Shown here one piece after another: positions 13,847-36,505 of a stretch of 42,114 nt of DNA (position 1 is the first letter of the stretch; each line of letters opens with the position of its first letter). Both the position numbers and the translations under genes were made by a program. Below the pieces are notes generated by a model, which was not told where the DNA came from, ran no database searches, and worked only from the letters and a program-made list of their open reading frames with translations. The stretch comes from a virus (Duplodnaviria > Heunggongvirae > Uroviricota > Caudoviricetes), in IMG/VR virus record IMGVR_UViG_2585427728_000007, one strand, 5' to 3'.

Positions 13847-14420
13847 CTTTATCCCTCACAATATGGGTAATGGCTCTGCGGTACTGTCCGGTATCAATCA
13901 ACGGCCTTACATTCTCATTGCTTATCAATTGACCAGAATCTGGGTTGATAGCATTAAGCTTTCCGTCTGCCGATCTGCGTGCTAACTCAGCTTTCGCCCC
14001 TTTGCGCCCTCGACGCGCGCGGGCTTCAACGGTGCTATCAGCAAGCGGTGTAAAGCCGGTAATGGTCATGTAACGCCTGACGCCATTCGCGGCCAGCGTT
14101 CCGGCGCGGTTAAGCGCTCTTTCCGCCCCCGCCGCATTTCCATCAAGCGCAGCCTGCGCCGCTGCTTTGAGCTGCGGCACCGTCTGTTCCTCTACGGATT
14201 TAACGCCGGGGATCAGGTGCGGGCGTGGGGGGATGTTTTGCGCTGGTGAGCCGTATTCGTTGACGTAACCGATCCCGGCATTACCAAACGGAACATCCTC
14301 ACGCTCGCTGTCTTCTTCCGGGATGCCCACCAGCACATCCTTTTTGGTTAGCGACCGGAGCGCATCCAGAATGGCCTGAGCGTTATCAACCCTCGTTGTT
14401 ACACCACTTTTGAAACTCAT
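13833..14420 (-). CDS. Hypothetical virion protein
   Basis: 195 aa ORF in the structural operon; short overlaps with neighbours consistent with translational coupling. Confidence 0.45.
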
Positions 14421-14860
14421 AGCTGGCGACCGCCCGCACCGAACATCGTGATCAGCTGATAAAATTCAGCGCCATATCGGGTGTTATTCCAGAAGCCTGC
14501 GTCAGGGTTTAGCGTCGCGCTGGTGTCATAGCTGACGCTTACCTTGTCAACGGACTTGGAGGACTGAACACCATTGGTTGAGCCACCCGGGCCGCCGACG
14601 AGCATTGCCCGGCTATCTGCCGCCCAGAGCGTCATGTAGTGAGCCACGAACAACTCGACAAAGTACAGAAACAACTCTTTGCCGGTGACGTTTTCGCTCA
14701 GCAGCACATCAGCCAGATTCAGACGAAACTGGATTTGTGCTTCGGGATATTTGGCAGGGTCAGCAAACTGTGGAAAGTCGCGCCGAAAATCACTTACTGT
14801 TGGCAGGCTTTGATTCTTTGGCATCTTTCGCCCCATTACCGCCAGTCTGGGCGGCAGCAA
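14417..14860 (-). CDS. Hypothetical virion protein (possible head-tail connector component)
   Basis: 147 aa ORF; overlaps the upstream ORF by about 70 nt, so the true start may be an internal Met (MGRKMPKNQ...). Confidence 0.45.
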
Positions 14861-15179
14861 TCTGCGCTTGCAGGCTGTCTTTCTGCTCTTGCAGCTTGAG
14901 CAGCGCTTCTTTCAGATCGGCAATCAGCTGATCTTTATCGACAATCTGCTTATCTTTGTCGGCAATCTGCGCTTGCAGGCTGTCGATAATGGGTTGCAGA
15001 TCATCGGTGTCGCTAATCACGCTTTCGGAAAGCTCAGAGTGCGCCTGGGTGAACCAGTGAGACGCGACCTCTTCCGGTACGTTATGCCGCCCCCGGCCAA
15101 ACTCCTGTTTTGACTGATCGCCGAGCGTCAGCGTAAACGGGGTGTGAACATGGATGGTAACCAGCTTTTCTTTCGCCAT
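14790..15179 (-). CDS. Hypothetical coiled-coil protein downstream of the major capsid gene
   Basis: 129 aa; C-terminal half is heptad-like and repetitive ([43 protein letters not shown]), encoded by a 23 bp perfect direct repeat at 14857 and 14962. Confidence 0.5.
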
Positions 15180-15220
15180 TTTCAGTTTCCTTCTGGCCCC
15201 TTTCGGGGCCGTTCTGGTTA

Positions 15221-16162
15221 TCAGATACCGTCCACGTAGGACAGGGTTTCTTTGTACACTGGCTCAACCGCACCGAGCTTGCCGTAATAGGTCGCAATCT
15301 GGTACAGACCGCGATACTGGACAGGAACGCTTTGCAACGGCACCAGCGGATAGCGCACGTATTTCTTGTCGTTGGTGTAGGCGACCATACGGTCTTTACC
15401 GCCAACTCCGCGCCCTTTCAGCCATTTGACCGCTTTGATTTCCAGCGGAACGCCGTTCTGGTGGAAAGCGATAGTGTTCACGGCCAGATAGGTCAGCAGT
15501 GACTGGTTACCCGCTTCGGAAACCTTACGGCTCGCCAGCAGTGAATACTGCTCTGGCGGAATGCGCAGATCAGAAGGCACGACGGAATAACCGGATGCTG
15601 CCCAGGCATTCGACAGAATGCTGTTCACGCTATCGAGAATCTCGTCGTTGGTGGAGTTCGCCCAGGTCTTCGGCGCATTGTTCAGCGTCACACCGACAAG
15701 GTTTGCCAGCCCTTTCAGGCCGAGCGCATCATCGCCAATGTAAACCTGCTCGTCGTTGTCCATCTGCCATTTGAGCTGCATCCCGTCGTACTTCTGGGTA
15801 TCAATCGGGCGACCTACCTGCTGAGCTGCTGCCAGCTCTACAACGGTCCAGCCCAGTTCCATGCCCCAGAGGTTCAGCGGATTGCCGTCTTTGCCGATAT
15901 CAACATTCACGCCAGCAATAGCAGTGGAGTCTTTGCCTACCCAGTTTTTACCGTTCGGATTTGCGCCAGTACCCGCAGCGCCAAAACTGGTGTTAGTCCA
16001 GCTGGAAATGTCATCTGCGATAGAAACGTCTTCACGCAGCTGAATATCGCGGGTCCAGGTGTAACCCACCAGCGGCAGGTTCAACGTCTGGTCGAGTCGC
16101 TCCAGCTCCCCGATGAGAAAGGCACCAGAGCTATCAACGGTTGCCTGATCAAAAGTAATCAT
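15221..16162 (-). CDS. Major capsid protein
   Basis: 313 aa ORF at the expected position after the scaffold/protease-like and small head genes; size typical of Mu-type major head subunits. Confidence 0.65.
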   Translation of the reverse strand: MITFDQATVDSSGAFLIGELERLDQTLNLPLVGYTWTRDIQLREDVSIADDISSWTNTSFGAAGTGANPNGKNWVGKDSTAIAGVNVDIGKDGNPLNLWGMELGWTVVELAAAQQVGRPIDTQKYDGMQLKWQMDNDEQVYIGDDALGLKGLANLVGVTLNNAPKTWANSTNDEILDSVNSILSNAWAASGYSVVPSDLRIPPEQYSLLASRKVSEAGNQSLLTYLAVNTIAFHQNGVPLEIKAVKWLKGRGVGGKDRMVAYTNDKKYVRYPLVPLQSVPVQYRGLYQIATYYGKLGAVEPVYKETLSYVDGI

Positions 16163-16173
16163 TCGTCTGTTCC

Positions 16174-16677
16174 TTAAATCTTCCAGGAGATTTCTGCATT
16201 GCCGTTAGCGTCACCGGCCCCTGTGAATTCGGCGTTGGTCAGCGCCACGTTTTTGCCACTGACGGACGTGGACATGAAGCCGCCCAGCGGCACTTTGATG
16301 GATTCATCAGTGGAGACGACAACGTATACCGGGTCGCCTTTTTTGATGGTGCTGGCATCAAAATCAGAACCGAGATTAACGGTCATGTAGCCACGCTTCA
16401 TGGCGTCACCCGGGAAGTTCTTATCCGTCCCCACCTGGCGAACCATGTCTGGCTGCGATGTGGTCGGATACGGACGAACGTAGATCCCCTTCACCTTGTC
16501 GGCGGTGTCACCGTCCGCCAGCGGCACGAAAAAGCCGTCAGCGTCATATTTGCCAGCCAGACCATAGGCAGCGAAGGCGTTAGCGGATTTAAGGATCACC
16601 GGTTCGACGGTTAAGTCCTGCGGGCGAGAGATAGCCCCGGCAATGCCAACAGGCATCCGGTACAGATATGCAGTCAT
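16174..16677 (-). CDS. Head protein (decoration or scaffold-like)
   Basis: 167 aa ORF between the protease/scaffold-like gene and the major capsid gene. Confidence 0.45.
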   Translation of the reverse strand: MTAYLYRMPVGIAGAISRPQDLTVEPVILKSANAFAAYGLAGKYDADGFFVPLADGDTADKVKGIYVRPYPTTSQPDMVRQVGTDKNFPGDAMKRGYMTVNLGSDFDASTIKKGDPVYVVVSTDESIKVPLGGFMSTSVSGKNVALTNAEFTGAGDANGNAEISWKI

Positions 16678-16681
16678 TGGA

Positions 16682-17914
16682 TTATCCTTTGCGGTTAGAC
16701 CAGAAGTCGGCGTTTTGTTTGTTCAGGGAAGCGATGCTGGTCATGCCCATATTTGGACGTTGTGCATCGCCCGTGGTGCTGCGGGTGTTTCGCCCTTTGG
16801 CAATCTCAGACACGGCGTTAAACGCCATATCGACCGATTGCTTGGGCAATTTGCGGATATCTGCATCACCGACAACCTGGCGAACCAGTGTTTTGTCAGC
16901 GGCGGACAGCACATCACGTTTGAACGCGGTCGGTTTCACCTTACGGCTCAGATCGATACCCGGAACGATAACTTCGGCACGATAAGCAGCGTCACCGGTA
17001 ATCGTGGTTTCCTCTTCGTCGTCCTCACCGTCGCCGGTAGGGTCTTTGTTATCTTTGCCGTCAGGCTTATCGTCGTTATCGCCCGTTGCAGTACCTTCCA
17101 GCTTAGCCAGCAGGGCTTTGAGCAAGGTTTTGATATCGTCCTCGCCGTCGCCGGTTGGCTCTCCGCCCATTTCCGGCTTTTTGTCCGGCAATGGTTGCTG
17201 CGGTGAAAGGTTAATGTTGAGGTTAACGCCGCTCGGCAGATCCCCTTCGTCACCCGTTACCGCCGCTGGCGCAGAGTCCAGCAGTTCGTTCATGGTGTCA
17301 GCGTCACCCGTTTTGATGGCCGTGCGCATGCGGGTCCACCAGCTTTTCTTTTGATTTGCCATTGTGTCTCTGTCTCCAATTGCACAACGATTTCCGGCTC
17401 TGCCTTTAGGGACAAGAGCCACATGGTTTCCGGTGATATCGACCTGCTCGGCTTTTCCGGGTTCGGTCTGCTCGTACTCAGCGTCATAGCCGCACGACAC
17501 TTCGCGCAGACCATCTTCGATCAGCTGAATGGCGCTTTCGTCTTTGACGATAAGGTCAGCCAGCATCCAATCAGACTGATCACCTGTCCCGCGCCGAACG
17601 TTCTGAAGATGCCCGACCGCAAGCTCTTTCCAGTTCTCGGGGTTGACCAGCCGCACATTCCCGTTTTCATCTTCAGGATGCAGGATCGTGATGCTCATCC
17701 CTTCGAATGAGGCGAGCGTGGCCGGATGGAATACCTGCTCAGGAGAACGCGTGACGACTATTTCACCGAACTTATCGGGTTTCAGTTTTGGCAGGTCATC
17801 AGCACCATAGAGCTGCTTACCTGTTCGTCCTATCGGCACGTCTTTGCACAGCAACGAGCCGTCAGCCAGCTGATAGCGGGTTTCCCCCAGCCGGGTATTG
17901 AAAAAATATTTCAT
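16682..17914 (-). CDS. Prohead protease / scaffolding-like protein
   Basis: 410 aa; highly acidic low-complexity segment (TGDGEDD...DKPDGKDNKDPTGDGEDDEEE) typical of scaffolding proteins; sits between the head morphogenesis and capsid genes. Confidence 0.5.
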   Translation of the reverse strand: MKYFFNTRLGETRYQLADGSLLCKDVPIGRTGKQLYGADDLPKLKPDKFGEIVVTRSPEQVFHPATLASFEGMSITILHPEDENGNVRLVNPENWKELAVGHLQNVRRGTGDQSDWMLADLIVKDESAIQLIEDGLREVSCGYDAEYEQTEPGKAEQVDITGNHVALVPKGRAGNRCAIGDRDTMANQKKSWWTRMRTAIKTGDADTMNELLDSAPAAVTGDEGDLPSGVNLNINLSPQQPLPDKKPEMGGEPTGDGEDDIKTLLKALLAKLEGTATGDNDDKPDGKDNKDPTGDGEDDEEETTITGDAAYRAEVIVPGIDLSRKVKPTAFKRDVLSAADKTLVRQVVGDADIRKLPKQSVDMAFNAVSEIAKGRNTRSTTGDAQRPNMGMTSIASLNKQNADFWSNRKG

Positions 17915-28760: not shown

Positions 28761-30212
28761 TCAGAATCCTCCTTTCTTCTTGGATTGCGGTTCCTCGCGT
28801 TCACGGCGGCGCATTTCAGCAGACTGTTGGTCTGTGTCATAAATAGCGCCATTTGCCTGAATGCAATACACCGTGCCGGTATTGCCATGACGATTGAGAC
28901 GAAGGATTAGTTCGGTTTCACCAGGCGGAACACTGTCATCAAAAGCACCTTCACGATGGATCCCCACCCAATAATCGCAATCCTGTTCAATCTGCCCTGT
29001 ATCGCGCGAGTCACTTGGTAATGGGCGTTTATTGGTTCGGCTTTCCAGTGCGCGGTTAAGCTGCGTCAGAAGCACAACAACGCAATCAAGCTCTTTGGCA
29101 AGGTTCTTCAGTCCTTTGGTGATCATGCCGTAAGCAAGGTCGTTACGATCGGCTTTCTCAGCGGTCATTAGTGTCAGGTAATCGACCAGAATCATGCCAA
29201 CACATCCTTTTTCTCGCTTGATTCGACGGCTTTCGCTGACGATTTGAGCCAGAGATAATCCCGGCGTGTCGTCGATGTAAAGCAGGTCGATTTCACTCAA
29301 GCGATTGGCTGTTTCGATCGCCCTGTTGAAGTCACCATCGTAATCACCCTGATAGCCGTCATCGGCGTCATTTGTCGCCGGAAGGTAAAAAATATTCGGG
29401 TTAACACCAGACTTCTGCCCTACCAGTTTTTCCAGTATCTGATCACCTGGCATTTCAAGGCTGAACATCAGAGCGGGCTTTTTCTCATGCACTGCGCAGT
29501 TGATTGCCATCTGGCTGTATAGCGTCGTTTTCCCCATCTTAGGGCGAGCGCCAATGACAAACAGAGAGCCTTTCACCAGACCTTTCGGTGACAGCATCCT
29601 GTCCAGCGATGGGATCCCTGTGCTCATTCCCCGTTGTTCGCCTGATGGGTCAAATCGCTTCTCAAGGTCGCTAACCCAGTCTTCCATGACCTCACCAAAT
29701 GAACGAAGGCCGCGACGCGATCCGGTTTTTGCATGGTCTGTCAGTTGCGTGAAAATCGACTGAATAGCTTCGTACTTCTGCGTTGCAGTCATTCCGTTGC
29801 GGGAATAGAGCAATTCCGTCGCTTCAGTCATGCGGTTGATGGCGTAGCGTTCCATTGCGGTTTCACGAACCTGCATTGCATAGGCAACGATGTTTGCTGC
29901 GCTTGGCGTGTTCTTTGCGATCTCAGCGATATAAGCAAAACCGCCAACAGACACCGTTAACGATTTACGCTCCAGTTCATCGAAAAGCGTCAGGCCATCT
30001 ACTGGCTTTTGCTCACGGTGCATTCTGGTTATTTCTTCGAAAAGGATTTTGTGTGGTCGGCTGTAAAATGAATCAGGCTTCAGCATCGCCAGAACTTTCT
30101 GGACGCGCTCACTGCTGTCATCATCCAGAAGCAATCCACCAATCACCGCCTGCTCTGCCTCGATGCTATGGGGCGGCGCATAAAAATTATCGGTCATCGT
30201 GTTCACCCTCAC
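28761..30212 (-). CDS. Replicative DNA helicase (DnaB family)
   Basis: 483 aa; N-terminal DnaB-like region and Walker A GARPKMGKTTL in a RecA-like C-terminal domain; follows the O-like initiator gene. Confidence 0.9.
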   Translation of the reverse strand: MRVNTMTDNFYAPPHSIEAEQAVIGGLLLDDDSSERVQKVLAMLKPDSFYSRPHKILFEEITRMHREQKPVDGLTLFDELERKSLTVSVGGFAYIAEIAKNTPSAANIVAYAMQVRETAMERYAINRMTEATELLYSRNGMTATQKYEAIQSIFTQLTDHAKTGSRRGLRSFGEVMEDWVSDLEKRFDPSGEQRGMSTGIPSLDRMLSPKGLVKGSLFVIGARPKMGKTTLYSQMAINCAVHEKKPALMFSLEMPGDQILEKLVGQKSGVNPNIFYLPATNDADDGYQGDYDGDFNRAIETANRLSEIDLLYIDDTPGLSLAQIVSESRRIKREKGCVGMILVDYLTLMTAEKADRNDLAYGMITKGLKNLAKELDCVVVLLTQLNRALESRTNKRPLPSDSRDTGQIEQDCDYWVGIHREGAFDDSVPPGETELILRLNRHGNTGTVYCIQANGAIYDTDQQSAEMRRREREEPQSKKKGGF

Positions 30213-31077
30213 GAACTTTCAGGTAGGTATTATCGTTAAGCAGGAAATCAAATCCCTTTTTGTGCCAGACGGTTCCGCGTTGATGGTTTGGGCGCTCTTC
30301 GAACATCCATCGGCAATTTTCGCCTACGTAGCTCAAATAATTTCTCCAGTCCTGCATCGTGAAACCATGCCCATCAAGCTGGCGGGTTATCACTCCGGCT
30401 TTGCGCCAGAACGTTCGGATCTGGTTTTTACGCTTGTCATTCAGTGCGCGGATTCTTGGCGCTTCAGGAAGGATTTCGTGGTAAGCATCGACAACATCCT
30501 GACAGCTAACGGAAGGTTTTTTCTTGTCAGACTTTTTGTCTGCTGTGGCACTCTCTAATACGTCAGTATTAGAGATATTATTTATATTATTGTTTATGGA
30601 CAACCGTTGGACAACCGTTGGACAATCTCCGCTGAGAGCCGCGCCATTACTGGTGTTTGCGTTGGACAACCGTTGGACAACCGTTGGACAATTTTTTGCC
30701 TGAAAATCGTCATATTTAACGATTGTAAACAGGCTAAATTTCTTCCCCATCGAGCAAATATTAAGCATCCCTTTCGACTCAAAAGTCCGTAATAAGCTCC
30801 GAACTTTGTTGTCGGGGATGAATGTTTCTCTGACCAGCGACGGGCGTCCAGTTATCATCTGACCGCGATCAACAGTTATCGGCCCGATATCCGTATTGAC
30901 GACAGTAGATTCGTGATTAGCCTTGAGGATTAAGTGAAGCCAAAGATGTACTGCCTGAGAGTCCTTATAGAGCCTGCTGTCCATAAACTGGCGGTGTATA
31001 GAGACATACCCCATACTGGATGCCTCCTGATGTTGTACAGGGTTATGCCTGTAATCAGCTAACTTAACGACGCCCAT
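30187..31077 (-). CDS. Replication initiator (lambda O-like), with ori iterons inside the gene
   Basis: 296 aa; position after cII and before the helicase; coding sequence contains six 11 bp iterons that encode the repeated peptide CPTVVQRLSN; the true start may be the internal Met (MGYVSIHRQF...). Confidence 0.7.
   Translation of the reverse strand: MGVVKLADYRHNPVQHQEASSMGYVSIHRQFMDSRLYKDSQAVHLWLHLILKANHESTVVNTDIGPITVDRGQMITGRPSLVRETFIPDNKVRSLLRTFESKGMLNICSMGKKFSLFTIVKYDDFQAKNCPTVVQRLSNANTSNGAALSGDCPTVVQRLSINNNINNISNTDVLESATADKKSDKKKPSVSCQDVVDAYHEILPEAPRIRALNDKRKNQIRTFWRKAGVITRQLDGHGFTMQDWRNYLSYVGENCRWMFEERPNHQRGTVWHKKGFDFLLNDNTYLKVREGEHDDR
30597..30695. repeat. Replication origin iterons: 6 copies of TGGACAACCGT-like 11 bp unit in two clusters
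   Basis: Copies begin at 30597, 30608, 30619 and 30663, 30674, 30685; the clusters are 44 bp (4 x 11) apart, so all copies are in phase; flanked on the low-coordinate side by an AT-rich stretch (30560-30596). Confidence 0.8.
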
Positions 31078-35393: not shown

Positions 35394-35497
35394 TATGAAT
35401 AAGCACTGTGTATTCATTCCAACGAGTGAATACACGGAGCAATGTCGCTCGTAACTAAACAGGAGCCGACTTGTTCTGATTATTGGAAATCTTCTTT

Positions 35498-35524
35498 GCC
35501 CTCCGATGTGAGGGCGATTTTTTT
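35498..35524 (+). terminator. Rho-independent terminator in the pL operon
   Basis: GCCCTC-CGATGT-GAGGGC followed by GATTTTTTT, ending 13 nt before the ATG of the coiled-coil gene. Confidence 0.55.
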
Positions 35525-35536
35525 GATGGAGGATAT

Positions 35537-36505
35537 ATGAGTGAAGTAACAGATTTAGTTGTTATTGAAAAAGCAAATGCAATGACTGTATTTCAGTCTG
35601 CCGACCAGATTGAAGAAATCCTTCAAAAGGTTGAACGTGAAGTTATGTCCTTTGTGCCTGATATCACAACGGCAAAGGGCAGAAAGGAGATCGCTTCTCT
35701 GGCGTATAAAGTTGCGCAGACGAAAACATATCTCGATGGTCTTGGAAAAGACCTTGTTGCTGAACTGAAGGAAATTCCAAAGCTAATTGATGCCAACCGC
35801 AAGACAGTGCGTGATCGCCTTGATGAGCTGAAATCCAAGGCACGCCAGCCTCTTACTGATTATGAGGAGGAACAGGCACGGATTAAAGCCGAAGAAGAAG
35901 CTAAGGCAGCAGCTGAAGCTCTCGCAAAGCAAATTGAGTCTGACCATGAAATAGCTATTTTGATGGATTGCGAATTTGACCGCCAAAGAGAAGAGGCAAG
36001 ACTCAAAGCGGAGCAGGAAAAGCGAGAGCATGAAGAACGCTTAAAAAGAGAAGCTGAAGAGAAAGCCAGAGCAGAAGCCGAAGCAAAGGCAAAAGCCGAA
36101 ATTGAAGCAGCAGCAAGGCGAGAAGCAGAAGCTAAGGCCGCAGCGGAACGTGCAGAGCGTGAACGTATTGAAGCCGAGCAACGAGCACAGCGCGAAGCAA
36201 AAGAGGCAGCAGAACGAGCTGAAAGAGAAAAGCAGGCGGCAATTGAAGCAGAACGCCGAAAAGCACAGGAGGAGGCTGAACGAATCCGGCGCGAGGCTGA
36301 AGCAAAAGAGCAAGCCAGAATAGCAGAAGAAAAAAGAATCAAGGAAGAAGAAGAGTGTAGAGCAAAGGATAAAGCTCACCGGAAAGAAGTAAATAACAAA
36401 ATACTTGCTGACCTTATCAAGGTTGGCGCATCAGAAGATGTTGCTAAAAATATCATAACAGCCATCGTAAAAGGCGAAGTATTCGCAACAAAAATAACCT
36501 ACTAA
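35537..36505 (+). CDS. Hypothetical charged coiled-coil protein (TolA-like Ala/Glu/Lys/Arg-rich repeat region)
   Basis: Start taken at ATG 35537 (MSEVTDLVVIEK...) with GGAGG; the longer ORF-track start would translate through the terminator; about 200 aa of AEAKAKAEIEAAARREAEAKAAAERAERE-type low-complexity helix. Confidence 0.55.
   Translation: MSEVTDLVVIEKANAMTVFQSADQIEEILQKVEREVMSFVPDITTAKGRKEIASLAYKVAQTKTYLDGLGKDLVAELKEIPKLIDANRKTVRDRLDELKSKARQPLTDYEEEQARIKAEEEAKAAAEALAKQIESDHEIAILMDCEFDRQREEARLKAEQEKREHEERLKREAEEKARAEAEAKAKAEIEAAARREAEAKAAAERAERERIEAEQRAQREAKEAAERAEREKQAAIEAERRKAQEEAERIRREAEAKEQARIAEEKRIKEEEECRAKDKAHRKEVNNKILADLIKVGASEDVAKNIITAIVKGEVFATKITY

Follow-up and report, generated by a model that had tools for sequence, protein, structure and literature searches.

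A small gene in the head-morphogenesis module of a temperate myophage is a tandem-repeat (VNTR-type) length-variable locus: repeat copy numbers differ among close relatives, and the breakpoints that separate the alleles lie on the repeats. The gene encodes a member of the STY1053 family, and the repeats sit in the part that specifies a predicted coiled coil. On our account as a whole, these repeats gave rise to the allelic series by slippage or recombination, the coil is a stalk that tolerates changes in length, and the protein is an accessory factor of head assembly. We place the probability of this account at about 0.75.

Position and architecture of the repeat-bearing gene

The stretch of DNA analyzed here (the window, 42,114 bp) is the genome of a temperate myophage or of a prophage, of the SEN34/Omnitron-like type. 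It encodes an integrase (1–1158) and a DnaB-type helicase, along with a portal, a Mu-F-like protein, a DUF3383 sheath, and an SLT-containing tape measure. Over 601 bp around the STY1053-family gene, its identity is 98.8% with Citrobacter phage Omnitron and 89% with Salmonella phage SEN34 of the genus Brunovirus. Reading along the minus strand, the order is DUF2213, cement, capsid, STY1053-family gene, adaptor, Neck1-type protein, and the remaining neck genes. The features of this region are as follows.

16682–17914, minus strand: DUF2213 / Pa193-gp24-like protein, 410 aa (PF09979)
16174–16677, minus strand: cement protein (PF23982/PF22758; E = 7.7e-31 and 1.3e-22 for the two profiles PF22758/PF23982)
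15221–16162, minus strand: major capsid protein, upstream neighbor (PF09950, E = 4.3e-82; phrog_264)
15194–15211, minus strand: GC-rich hairpin, CGGCCCC-GAAA-GGGGCCA on the coding strand, conserved among relatives
14790–15179, minus strand: STY1053-family gene, 129 aa (ORF list, NF047914, phrog_2619)
15030–15179, minus strand: N-terminal STY1053 domain, residues 1–50 (AlphaFold2, invariant columns)
14841–15023, minus strand: predicted continuous alpha-helix, residues 53–113, the variable-length stalk (AlphaFold2, codon heptad layout)
14962–14984, minus strand: upstream 23-bp repeat copy (5' in the gene), DSLQAQIA, residues 66–73
14904–14966, minus strand: three tandem 21-bp (7-codon) units in codon register (Tandem Repeats Finder period 21, codon comparison of alleles)
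14946–14966, minus strand: heptad unit IADKDKQ
14925–14945, minus strand: heptad unit IVDKDQL
14904–14924, minus strand: heptad unit IADLKEA
14857–14879, minus strand: downstream 23-bp repeat copy, DSLQAQIA, residues 101–108
14793–14840, minus strand: Gly/Lys-rich disordered C-terminal tail (pLDDT below 50, residues 116–127)
14790–14824, minus strand: 35-nt overlap of the STY1053-family gene with the start of the adaptor gene (ATG at 14824; ORF list)
14417–14824, minus strand: DUF4054 / E217 gp27-type head-to-tail adaptor, downstream neighbor (PF13262, E = 9.9e-27; label E217_gp27)

The STY1053-family gene begins with an ATG at 15179, preceded by a ribosome binding site-like AAGGAA about 8 nt upstream, and ends with a stop codon at 14790–14792. 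Its product matches the NCBIfam model NF047914, ‘STY1053 family phage-associated protein’, at 77.2 bits, where the curated cutoff is 40 (E = 7.6e-22); model positions 1–42 align to residues 8–49, as the model covers the N-terminal domain only. The match to phrog_2619 is near full-length (E = 2.8e-47 over residues 3–128), and phrog_6497, which represents a coil-less 73-aa form, matches residues 1–55 (E = 2.3e-21). Open reading frames on the plus strand, such as 14868–15113, are antisense to this ORF, and a plus-strand reading of the repeat was dropped because the minus-strand ORF matches a large family with conserved synteny.

In an AlphaFold2 model built from a 32-sequence alignment, residues 6–51 fold as four short beta-strands and one helix, and this domain carries the conserved motif VHTPF...G.H.V...A.HWF..AH. 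A helix of 61 residues (53–113) follows, with block pLDDT values of 91–98 over residues 61–100. From about residue 65 on, the predicted helix has heptad periodicity, with Ile or Leu at a/d spacing at residues 65, 68, 72, 79, 86, 89, 93, 96, 103, and 107. The repeated heptads place Lys at the ‘d’ position, which implies a weak hydrophobic core in the predicted coil there, and Pfam coiled-coil families give the 129-aa protein weak, sub-threshold matches only. By this monomer prediction, the protein has the long alpha-helix with hydrophobic heptad periodicity that is expected of a coiled coil. An earlier note on this DNA had described a small coiled-coil gene whose repeat encodes a heptad-like segment, and both descriptions hold: the predicted protein of 129 residues has one long helix with heptad periodicity, and 21 bp is exactly seven codons.

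At the DNA level, the 23-mer GCAATCTGCGCTTGCAGGCTGTC has two exact copies in the window, at 14857–14879 and 14962–14984, with a start-to-start spacing of 105 bp, or 5 × 21. No third site was found in the window with up to 3 mismatches allowed, and 100 dinucleotide-preserving shuffles yielded a mean of 0.00 matches, so that none is expected by chance. On the coding strand, which is the minus strand and had been left unstated in the earlier note, the 23-mer reads GACAGCCTGCAAGCGCAGATTGC and specifies D-S-L-Q-A-Q-I-A. Between the two copies, Tandem Repeats Finder reports an array with a 21-bp period at 14916–14970 (2.6 copies, 85% matches, score 82). A repeat search likewise found 86% identity between the adjoining 21-bp units 14916–14936 and 14937–14957, as well as a 65% copy of the 23-mer at 14878–14900. 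Recounting thus bears out the perfect 23-bp direct repeat of the earlier note at both of its sites, and tandem-repeat analysis agrees with the imperfect 21-bp copies it saw in between. Among 85 related loci with at least 2 copies of the 23-mer, the copies are identical over all 23 nt in 45 and differ by 1–2 bases in 40.

Both ends of the gene adjoin conserved elements. The hairpin at 15194–15211 lies 9 nt past the stop codon of the major capsid gene and 14 nt ahead of the start codon of the STY1053-family gene. Among about 90 related loci, all except one (L050) have the same stem and loop, and Hafnia phage yong1 has a different, equivalent hairpin (GGCCCCC-ATAT-GGGGGCC) at the corresponding place. 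A role as a terminator for the STY1053-family gene was rejected, there being no U-run after the hairpin on the coding strand; the hairpin may be an mRNA 3' stabilizer or an attenuator that sets the ratio of capsid to downstream protein. At the other end, the 35-nt overlap is identical in all relatives examined, where the adaptor is called as 135 aa. Conservation of the Lys-rich tail could therefore stem in part from the overlapping gene. The adaptor frame is +1 relative to the STY1053-family gene, and since a fusion of the two proteins by programmed −1 frameshifting would require the −1 frame, that candidate was set aside; no slippery site was noticed either.

Other repeats occur elsewhere in the window. 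Perfect 11-bp direct repeats (TTGGACAACCG) form two clusters of three, at 30597–30629 and 30660–30692, inside an ORF at 30187–31077 (minus strand, 296 aa, no Pfam match) directly upstream of the DnaB-type helicase gene (28761–30212); they look like λ-O-type origin iterons embedded in an initiator gene. A degenerate repeat with a 6-bp period (AGAAGC, about 14 copies, 63% matches) occupies 36049–36132 inside an ORF at 35483–36505 (plus strand, 340 aa, no Pfam match), and a 15-bp repeat adjoins it at 36005–36034.

Length alleles and their junctions

Homologues of the protein numbered 141, and the 120 of these that were listed include the following length classes.

94 aa: 15 proteins
122 aa: 23 proteins
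129 aa: 29 proteins
136 aa: 13 proteins
143 aa: 3 proteins
150 aa: 4 proteins

A single allele of 164 aa was found in E. coli EC2001, in a chromosome deposited as complete. To parse the coil we used 91 complete family proteins, including the window protein and that of EC2001; conserved flanks delimit the coil in 84, and in all 84 the coil lengths are congruent modulo 7. A scan of genome contigs gave 3 loci. The IMG/VR sample consists of the best 80 of 166 loci and is for that reason biased towards the 129-aa form. Deposited phage records contain only the 122-aa (SEN34), 129-aa (Omnitron), and 73-aa forms, and the alleles of 94, 136, 143, 150, and 164 aa come from prophages and metagenomic contigs only.

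A codon-by-codon comparison, in heptads, of DNA from representatives of each length class places the junctions on the repeats. Alleles of 94 aa (L087, L088) retain a single 23-mer, corresponding to an exact 105-bp deletion between the two repeats, and the 164-aa allele has the reciprocal product, in which 105 bp are duplicated perfectly in tandem with the 23-mer at the bounds. In alleles of 136 and 143 aa (L075, L076, L078, L091) there are one or two extra, base-identical copies of ATTGCCGACAAAGATAAGCAG or ATTGTCGATAAAGATCAGCTG. In the 150-aa allele of a Citrobacter braakii chromosome (L090), 84 bp have been duplicated perfectly in a gene of the 122-aa background. The 122-aa form itself (SEN34, L086) has a hybrid unit, IADKDKL, in which two 21-bp units have collapsed to one. 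The units gained or lost in the 122-, 136-, and 143-aa alleles are IADKDKQ and IVDKDQL, the first two of the three, and arrays in the alleles seen hold 2 to 4 near-identical 21-bp units.

The upstream 1 kb of these alleles, containing the capsid gene, is 97–99% identical to the window (92% for SEN34); positional comparison downstream gave 50–99%, where the low values probably reflect register-shifting indels. Six distinct linker haplotypes carry the 94-aa deletion, inside complete head-neck modules, so that it probably arose repeatedly, although recombination between prophages could contribute in part to its recurrence. Conversely, the commonest linker haplotype is found with six different lengths. 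The length comparison among related phages that the earlier note had proposed therefore finds variation, and its prediction of a hotspot for in-frame expansion and contraction stands, with relatives of 94 to 164 aa, all 84 coils congruent modulo 7, and junctions on the repeats.

The 21-bp units would be gained and lost by slipped-strand mispairing during replication, and exchange between the 23-mers 105 bp apart could proceed by slippage or by unequal recombination of the RecA or Red type, as judged from the end products. All events are multiples of 21 bp, and so none disturbs the reading frame or the heptad register. The length classes might instead be old, stably inherited alleles or artefacts of repeat assembly. 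Many homologues do come from short-read or metagenome assemblies, 129 aa dominates the best 80 of 166 IMG/VR loci, and the perfect 23-mer pair is present in only about half of the loci. But a typical read is longer than the repeats (21–105 bp), chromosomes deposited as complete contain the 164-aa and 150-aa alleles, and the 94-aa allele is represented by 24 contigs from independent samples. Furthermore, duplicated units are base-identical while their flanks differ by 1–3%, the same length is seen on more than one background, and a single linker background comes with six lengths. We consider inheritance of old alleles or assembly error very improbable as the source of the series.

A phase-variable contingency locus was also considered and rejected, as all unit changes are in-frame multiples of 21 bp and a single frameshifted copy was found. 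We found no evidence of immune or defense selection on the STY1053-family gene, or of on/off switching. The frameshifted copy is in an Apirhabdus apintestini chromosome (L006:3001–3388); it is one base longer, with the frameshift within the 21-bp repeat region, and its product of 114 aa has an unrelated C-terminus. It looks like a decaying prophage copy.

At 1.5 Å per residue, the predicted helix spans about 4 to 14 nm across the series, close to a four-fold range, from roughly 26 residues in the 94-aa form to roughly 96 in the 164-aa form. Since these very different lengths are found in intact head modules, and since one lineage has a coil-less 73-aa form, the coil would be a length-tolerant spacer or an oligomerization stalk and not a molecular ruler. 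The constrained parts of the protein would be the N-terminal domain and the basic tail, and the coil would be the adjustable part.

Role of the gene product in head assembly

The family is widespread. A search with the N-terminal 60 residues against 1.84 billion representative proteins returned 131 clusters at 50% identity, ranging from 31 to 328 aa. Nearly all of the 35 distant members inspected have an N-terminal domain, an acidic linker, a helical stretch, and a short basic C-terminal tail, and the helical stretch is either coiled-coil or Ala/Glu-rich and varies in sequence and length. Some distant members have two tandem N-terminal domains (P0131, P0135, P0136, P0179, and P0163 are listed). 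The C-terminal end of P0163 resembles, by eye, a DNA-binding helix pair of the HeH/Rho_N type, which recalls the helical N-terminal part of λ gpFI, but Pfam gave no confirmation of the motif. The cement-capsid-STY1053-adaptor synteny is kept in Hafnia phage yong1, Acinetobacter phage Ab105-1phi, and Burkholderia phage BgManors32, and RefSeq gives the same gene in E. coli prophages the name STY1053 family.

Among 5,426 complete E. coli genomes, 334 have the capsid-STY1053-adaptor region, and the match extends across the coil in only 102 of them. A sizeable E. coli group has matches in the flanks only, and there the span is shorter by about 168 nt, in agreement with the coil-less 73-aa form. This version belongs to a related E. 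coli lineage that includes vB_EcoM-689R2 and related phage records.

PHROGs, NCBIfam, and the literature assign no function to the family, and a full-text literature search found no published description of the STY1053 stalk or its length polymorphism, nor any literature on Omnitron or vB_EcoM-689R2. Searches of PDB sequences with the 129-aa protein (phmmer and profile) returned coiled-coil noise or nothing, and Foldseek gave nothing informative against the PDB and BFVD. Two candidate roles were rejected on the basis of neighboring genes. The profiles for cement or decoration proteins of the E217 gp24 type (PF22758/PF23982) match the gene at 16174–16677 and not the STY1053-family gene. Similarly, PF09979 matches the gene at 16682–17914, whereas the STY1053-family gene is not matched by it and follows the capsid gene, which speaks against a scaffolding protein, a helical product expected to be encoded upstream of the capsid.

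The earlier note had also called this a virion gene. It is located in the head-morphogenesis module, but no evidence puts its product in the particle, and its positional counterparts are unmodeled in four high-resolution cryo-EM virions of phages that have this kind of head module. Namely, the product of the gene between capsid and adaptor is unmodeled in E217 (gp26), Pa193 (gp27; PMC11456595), and Pam3 (gp8), and no protein is reported for this gene in the XM1 virion. We found no virion proteomics for SEN34 or Omnitron, and the SEN34 paper does not contain such data. We infer that the best reading is a flexible or transient accessory factor of head assembly, ranked above both a gpFI-like chaperone and a flexible virion component. 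On this reading the protein would occupy the λ gpFI gene position without being an ordered building block of the virion, and its conserved N-terminal domain would be the working part, most likely docking on the capsid or on another head-assembly partner during morphogenesis.

A place in the virion could take two forms, either a flexible head fiber or decoration that is anchored by the N-terminal domain with the coil pointing outward, or an internal protein that associates with capsid or DNA through its basic tail. The gene is encoded within the head structural module, a freely variable stalk would suit a protruding or flexible appendage, and the basic C-terminal tail is kept across the family. 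In addition, LC-MS of purified virions picked up Pa193 gp27, whose gene has this position in a phage of the same head-module kind, although the protein was never placed in the map, and there is unassigned trimer-like density beneath the Pa193 hexons (PMC11456595). But Pa193 gp27 and E217 gp26 belong to another PHROG (3714 versus 2619), and their comparison with the STY1053 family by hhalign gave a probability of 0.1. Homology to them found no support, only 4 homologues having turned up, and the LC-MS detection therefore bears on the STY1053-family protein by positional analogy only. Moreover, the three-fold sites on this type of capsid are taken by the cement protein (E217 and Pam3 papers), which the window encodes at 16174–16677. 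A virion component of either form thus appears unlikely, at something like one chance in a few.

A packaging chaperone resembling λ gpFI, with its domain order reversed, is a tentative alternative that we also consider improbable, if a little less so. Here the N-terminal domain would sit on the prohead, the coil and basic tail would reach the terminase-DNA complex, and changes in coil length would be neutral changes of a tether. Gene position and at best a weak fold match are what suggest this role, by analogy. The position is that of λ FI, which directly follows the capsid gene and precedes the genes for head-tail joining (E, FI, FII in λ), as the STY1053-family gene lies between the capsid gene at 15221–16162 and the adaptor at 14417–14824, but gene position by itself is weak evidence. 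Both proteins, at about 130 aa, combine a small folded domain with an acidic linker and a helical part, and the counterparts are missing from the virion maps of E217, Pa193, Pam3, and XM1, as expected of a non-structural chaperone. It has been reported that gpFI bridges the capsid and the terminase-DNA complex (PMC13595911), and relatives of gpFI in other phages are attributed to Popovic et al., 2012 in PMC4493119. Against this, Pfam PF14000 and PF14553 did not match even at E ≤ 10, and hhalign of gpFI with the STY1053 family gave a probability of 0.2. The C-terminal domain of λ gpFI ranked 394 of 2,001 sequences (1,667 of which scored at all) when searched with an STY1053 HMM, within the distribution of shuffles, and gpFI was not listed by Foldseek against the PDB. 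Outright homology to gpFI (Pfam PF14000 / phrog_92) found no support, as the Pfam, hhalign, and HMM-versus-shuffles tests were all negative. A gpFI-like role would refine the function of the accessory factor and is compatible with the repeat mechanism.

Significance and comparison with known systems

The locus offers a clean natural allelic series, from 94 to 164 aa together with a coil-less 73-aa form, for a conserved and uncharacterized head-module protein. The series separates the constrained parts (N-terminal domain and basic tail) from the adjustable coil, which guides the choice of what to mutate, and it argues against a ruler-like stalk. It also provides a short, PCR-typable length marker in SEN34/Omnitron-like prophages. 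Automated annotation and clustering have split this one gene into several length classes.

The window protein is a member of the STY1053 family with no differing feature, and the definition of that family does not include the coiled-coil stalk or the heptad-unit length polymorphism. A broader proposal is that the family comprises widespread, unrecognized capsid-docking proteins of assembly or packaging, equivalent to gpFI in reversed order, with the repeats acting either as a dial of tether length or as variation against sensing by host defense, in both cases kept by selection and not a matter of neutral slippage; we regard this as a long shot.

Pa193 gp27 and E217 gp26 (PHROG 3714, Pbunavirus) are encoded, like the STY1053-family protein, between the capsid and adaptor genes, and their head-neck module is homologous (PF09979 scaffold-like protein, cement, PF09950 capsid, and PF13262 adaptor). 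They are of similar size (145 aa) and are likewise unmodeled in virion maps, but they have no detectable homology to the STY1053 family and no coiled coil evident in their sequence. For λ gpFI (PF14000, PDB 2LSM) and YqbF of a B. subtilis prophage (PDB 2HJQ), no sequence or profile similarity was found. The folded, head-binding domain of λ gpFI is C-terminal, whereas the folded domain of the STY1053 family is N-terminal, and λ gpFI does not have tandem heptad repeats.

In-frame length polymorphism of the tandem-repeat (VNTR) type is known in coiled-coil proteins, streptococcal M proteins being an example. The register-preserving repeat polymorphism of a coiled coil described here is of this known kind and is not a new type of mechanism. 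New here are the allelic series as documented, in which both reciprocal products of the 23-mer pair occur, and the inference that stalk length is unconstrained. As in the M proteins, the repeated unit consists of whole heptads, frame and register are kept, and copy number differs between close strains; unlike the M proteins, which are surface antigens, the STY1053-family protein is encoded by a gene of the phage head module.
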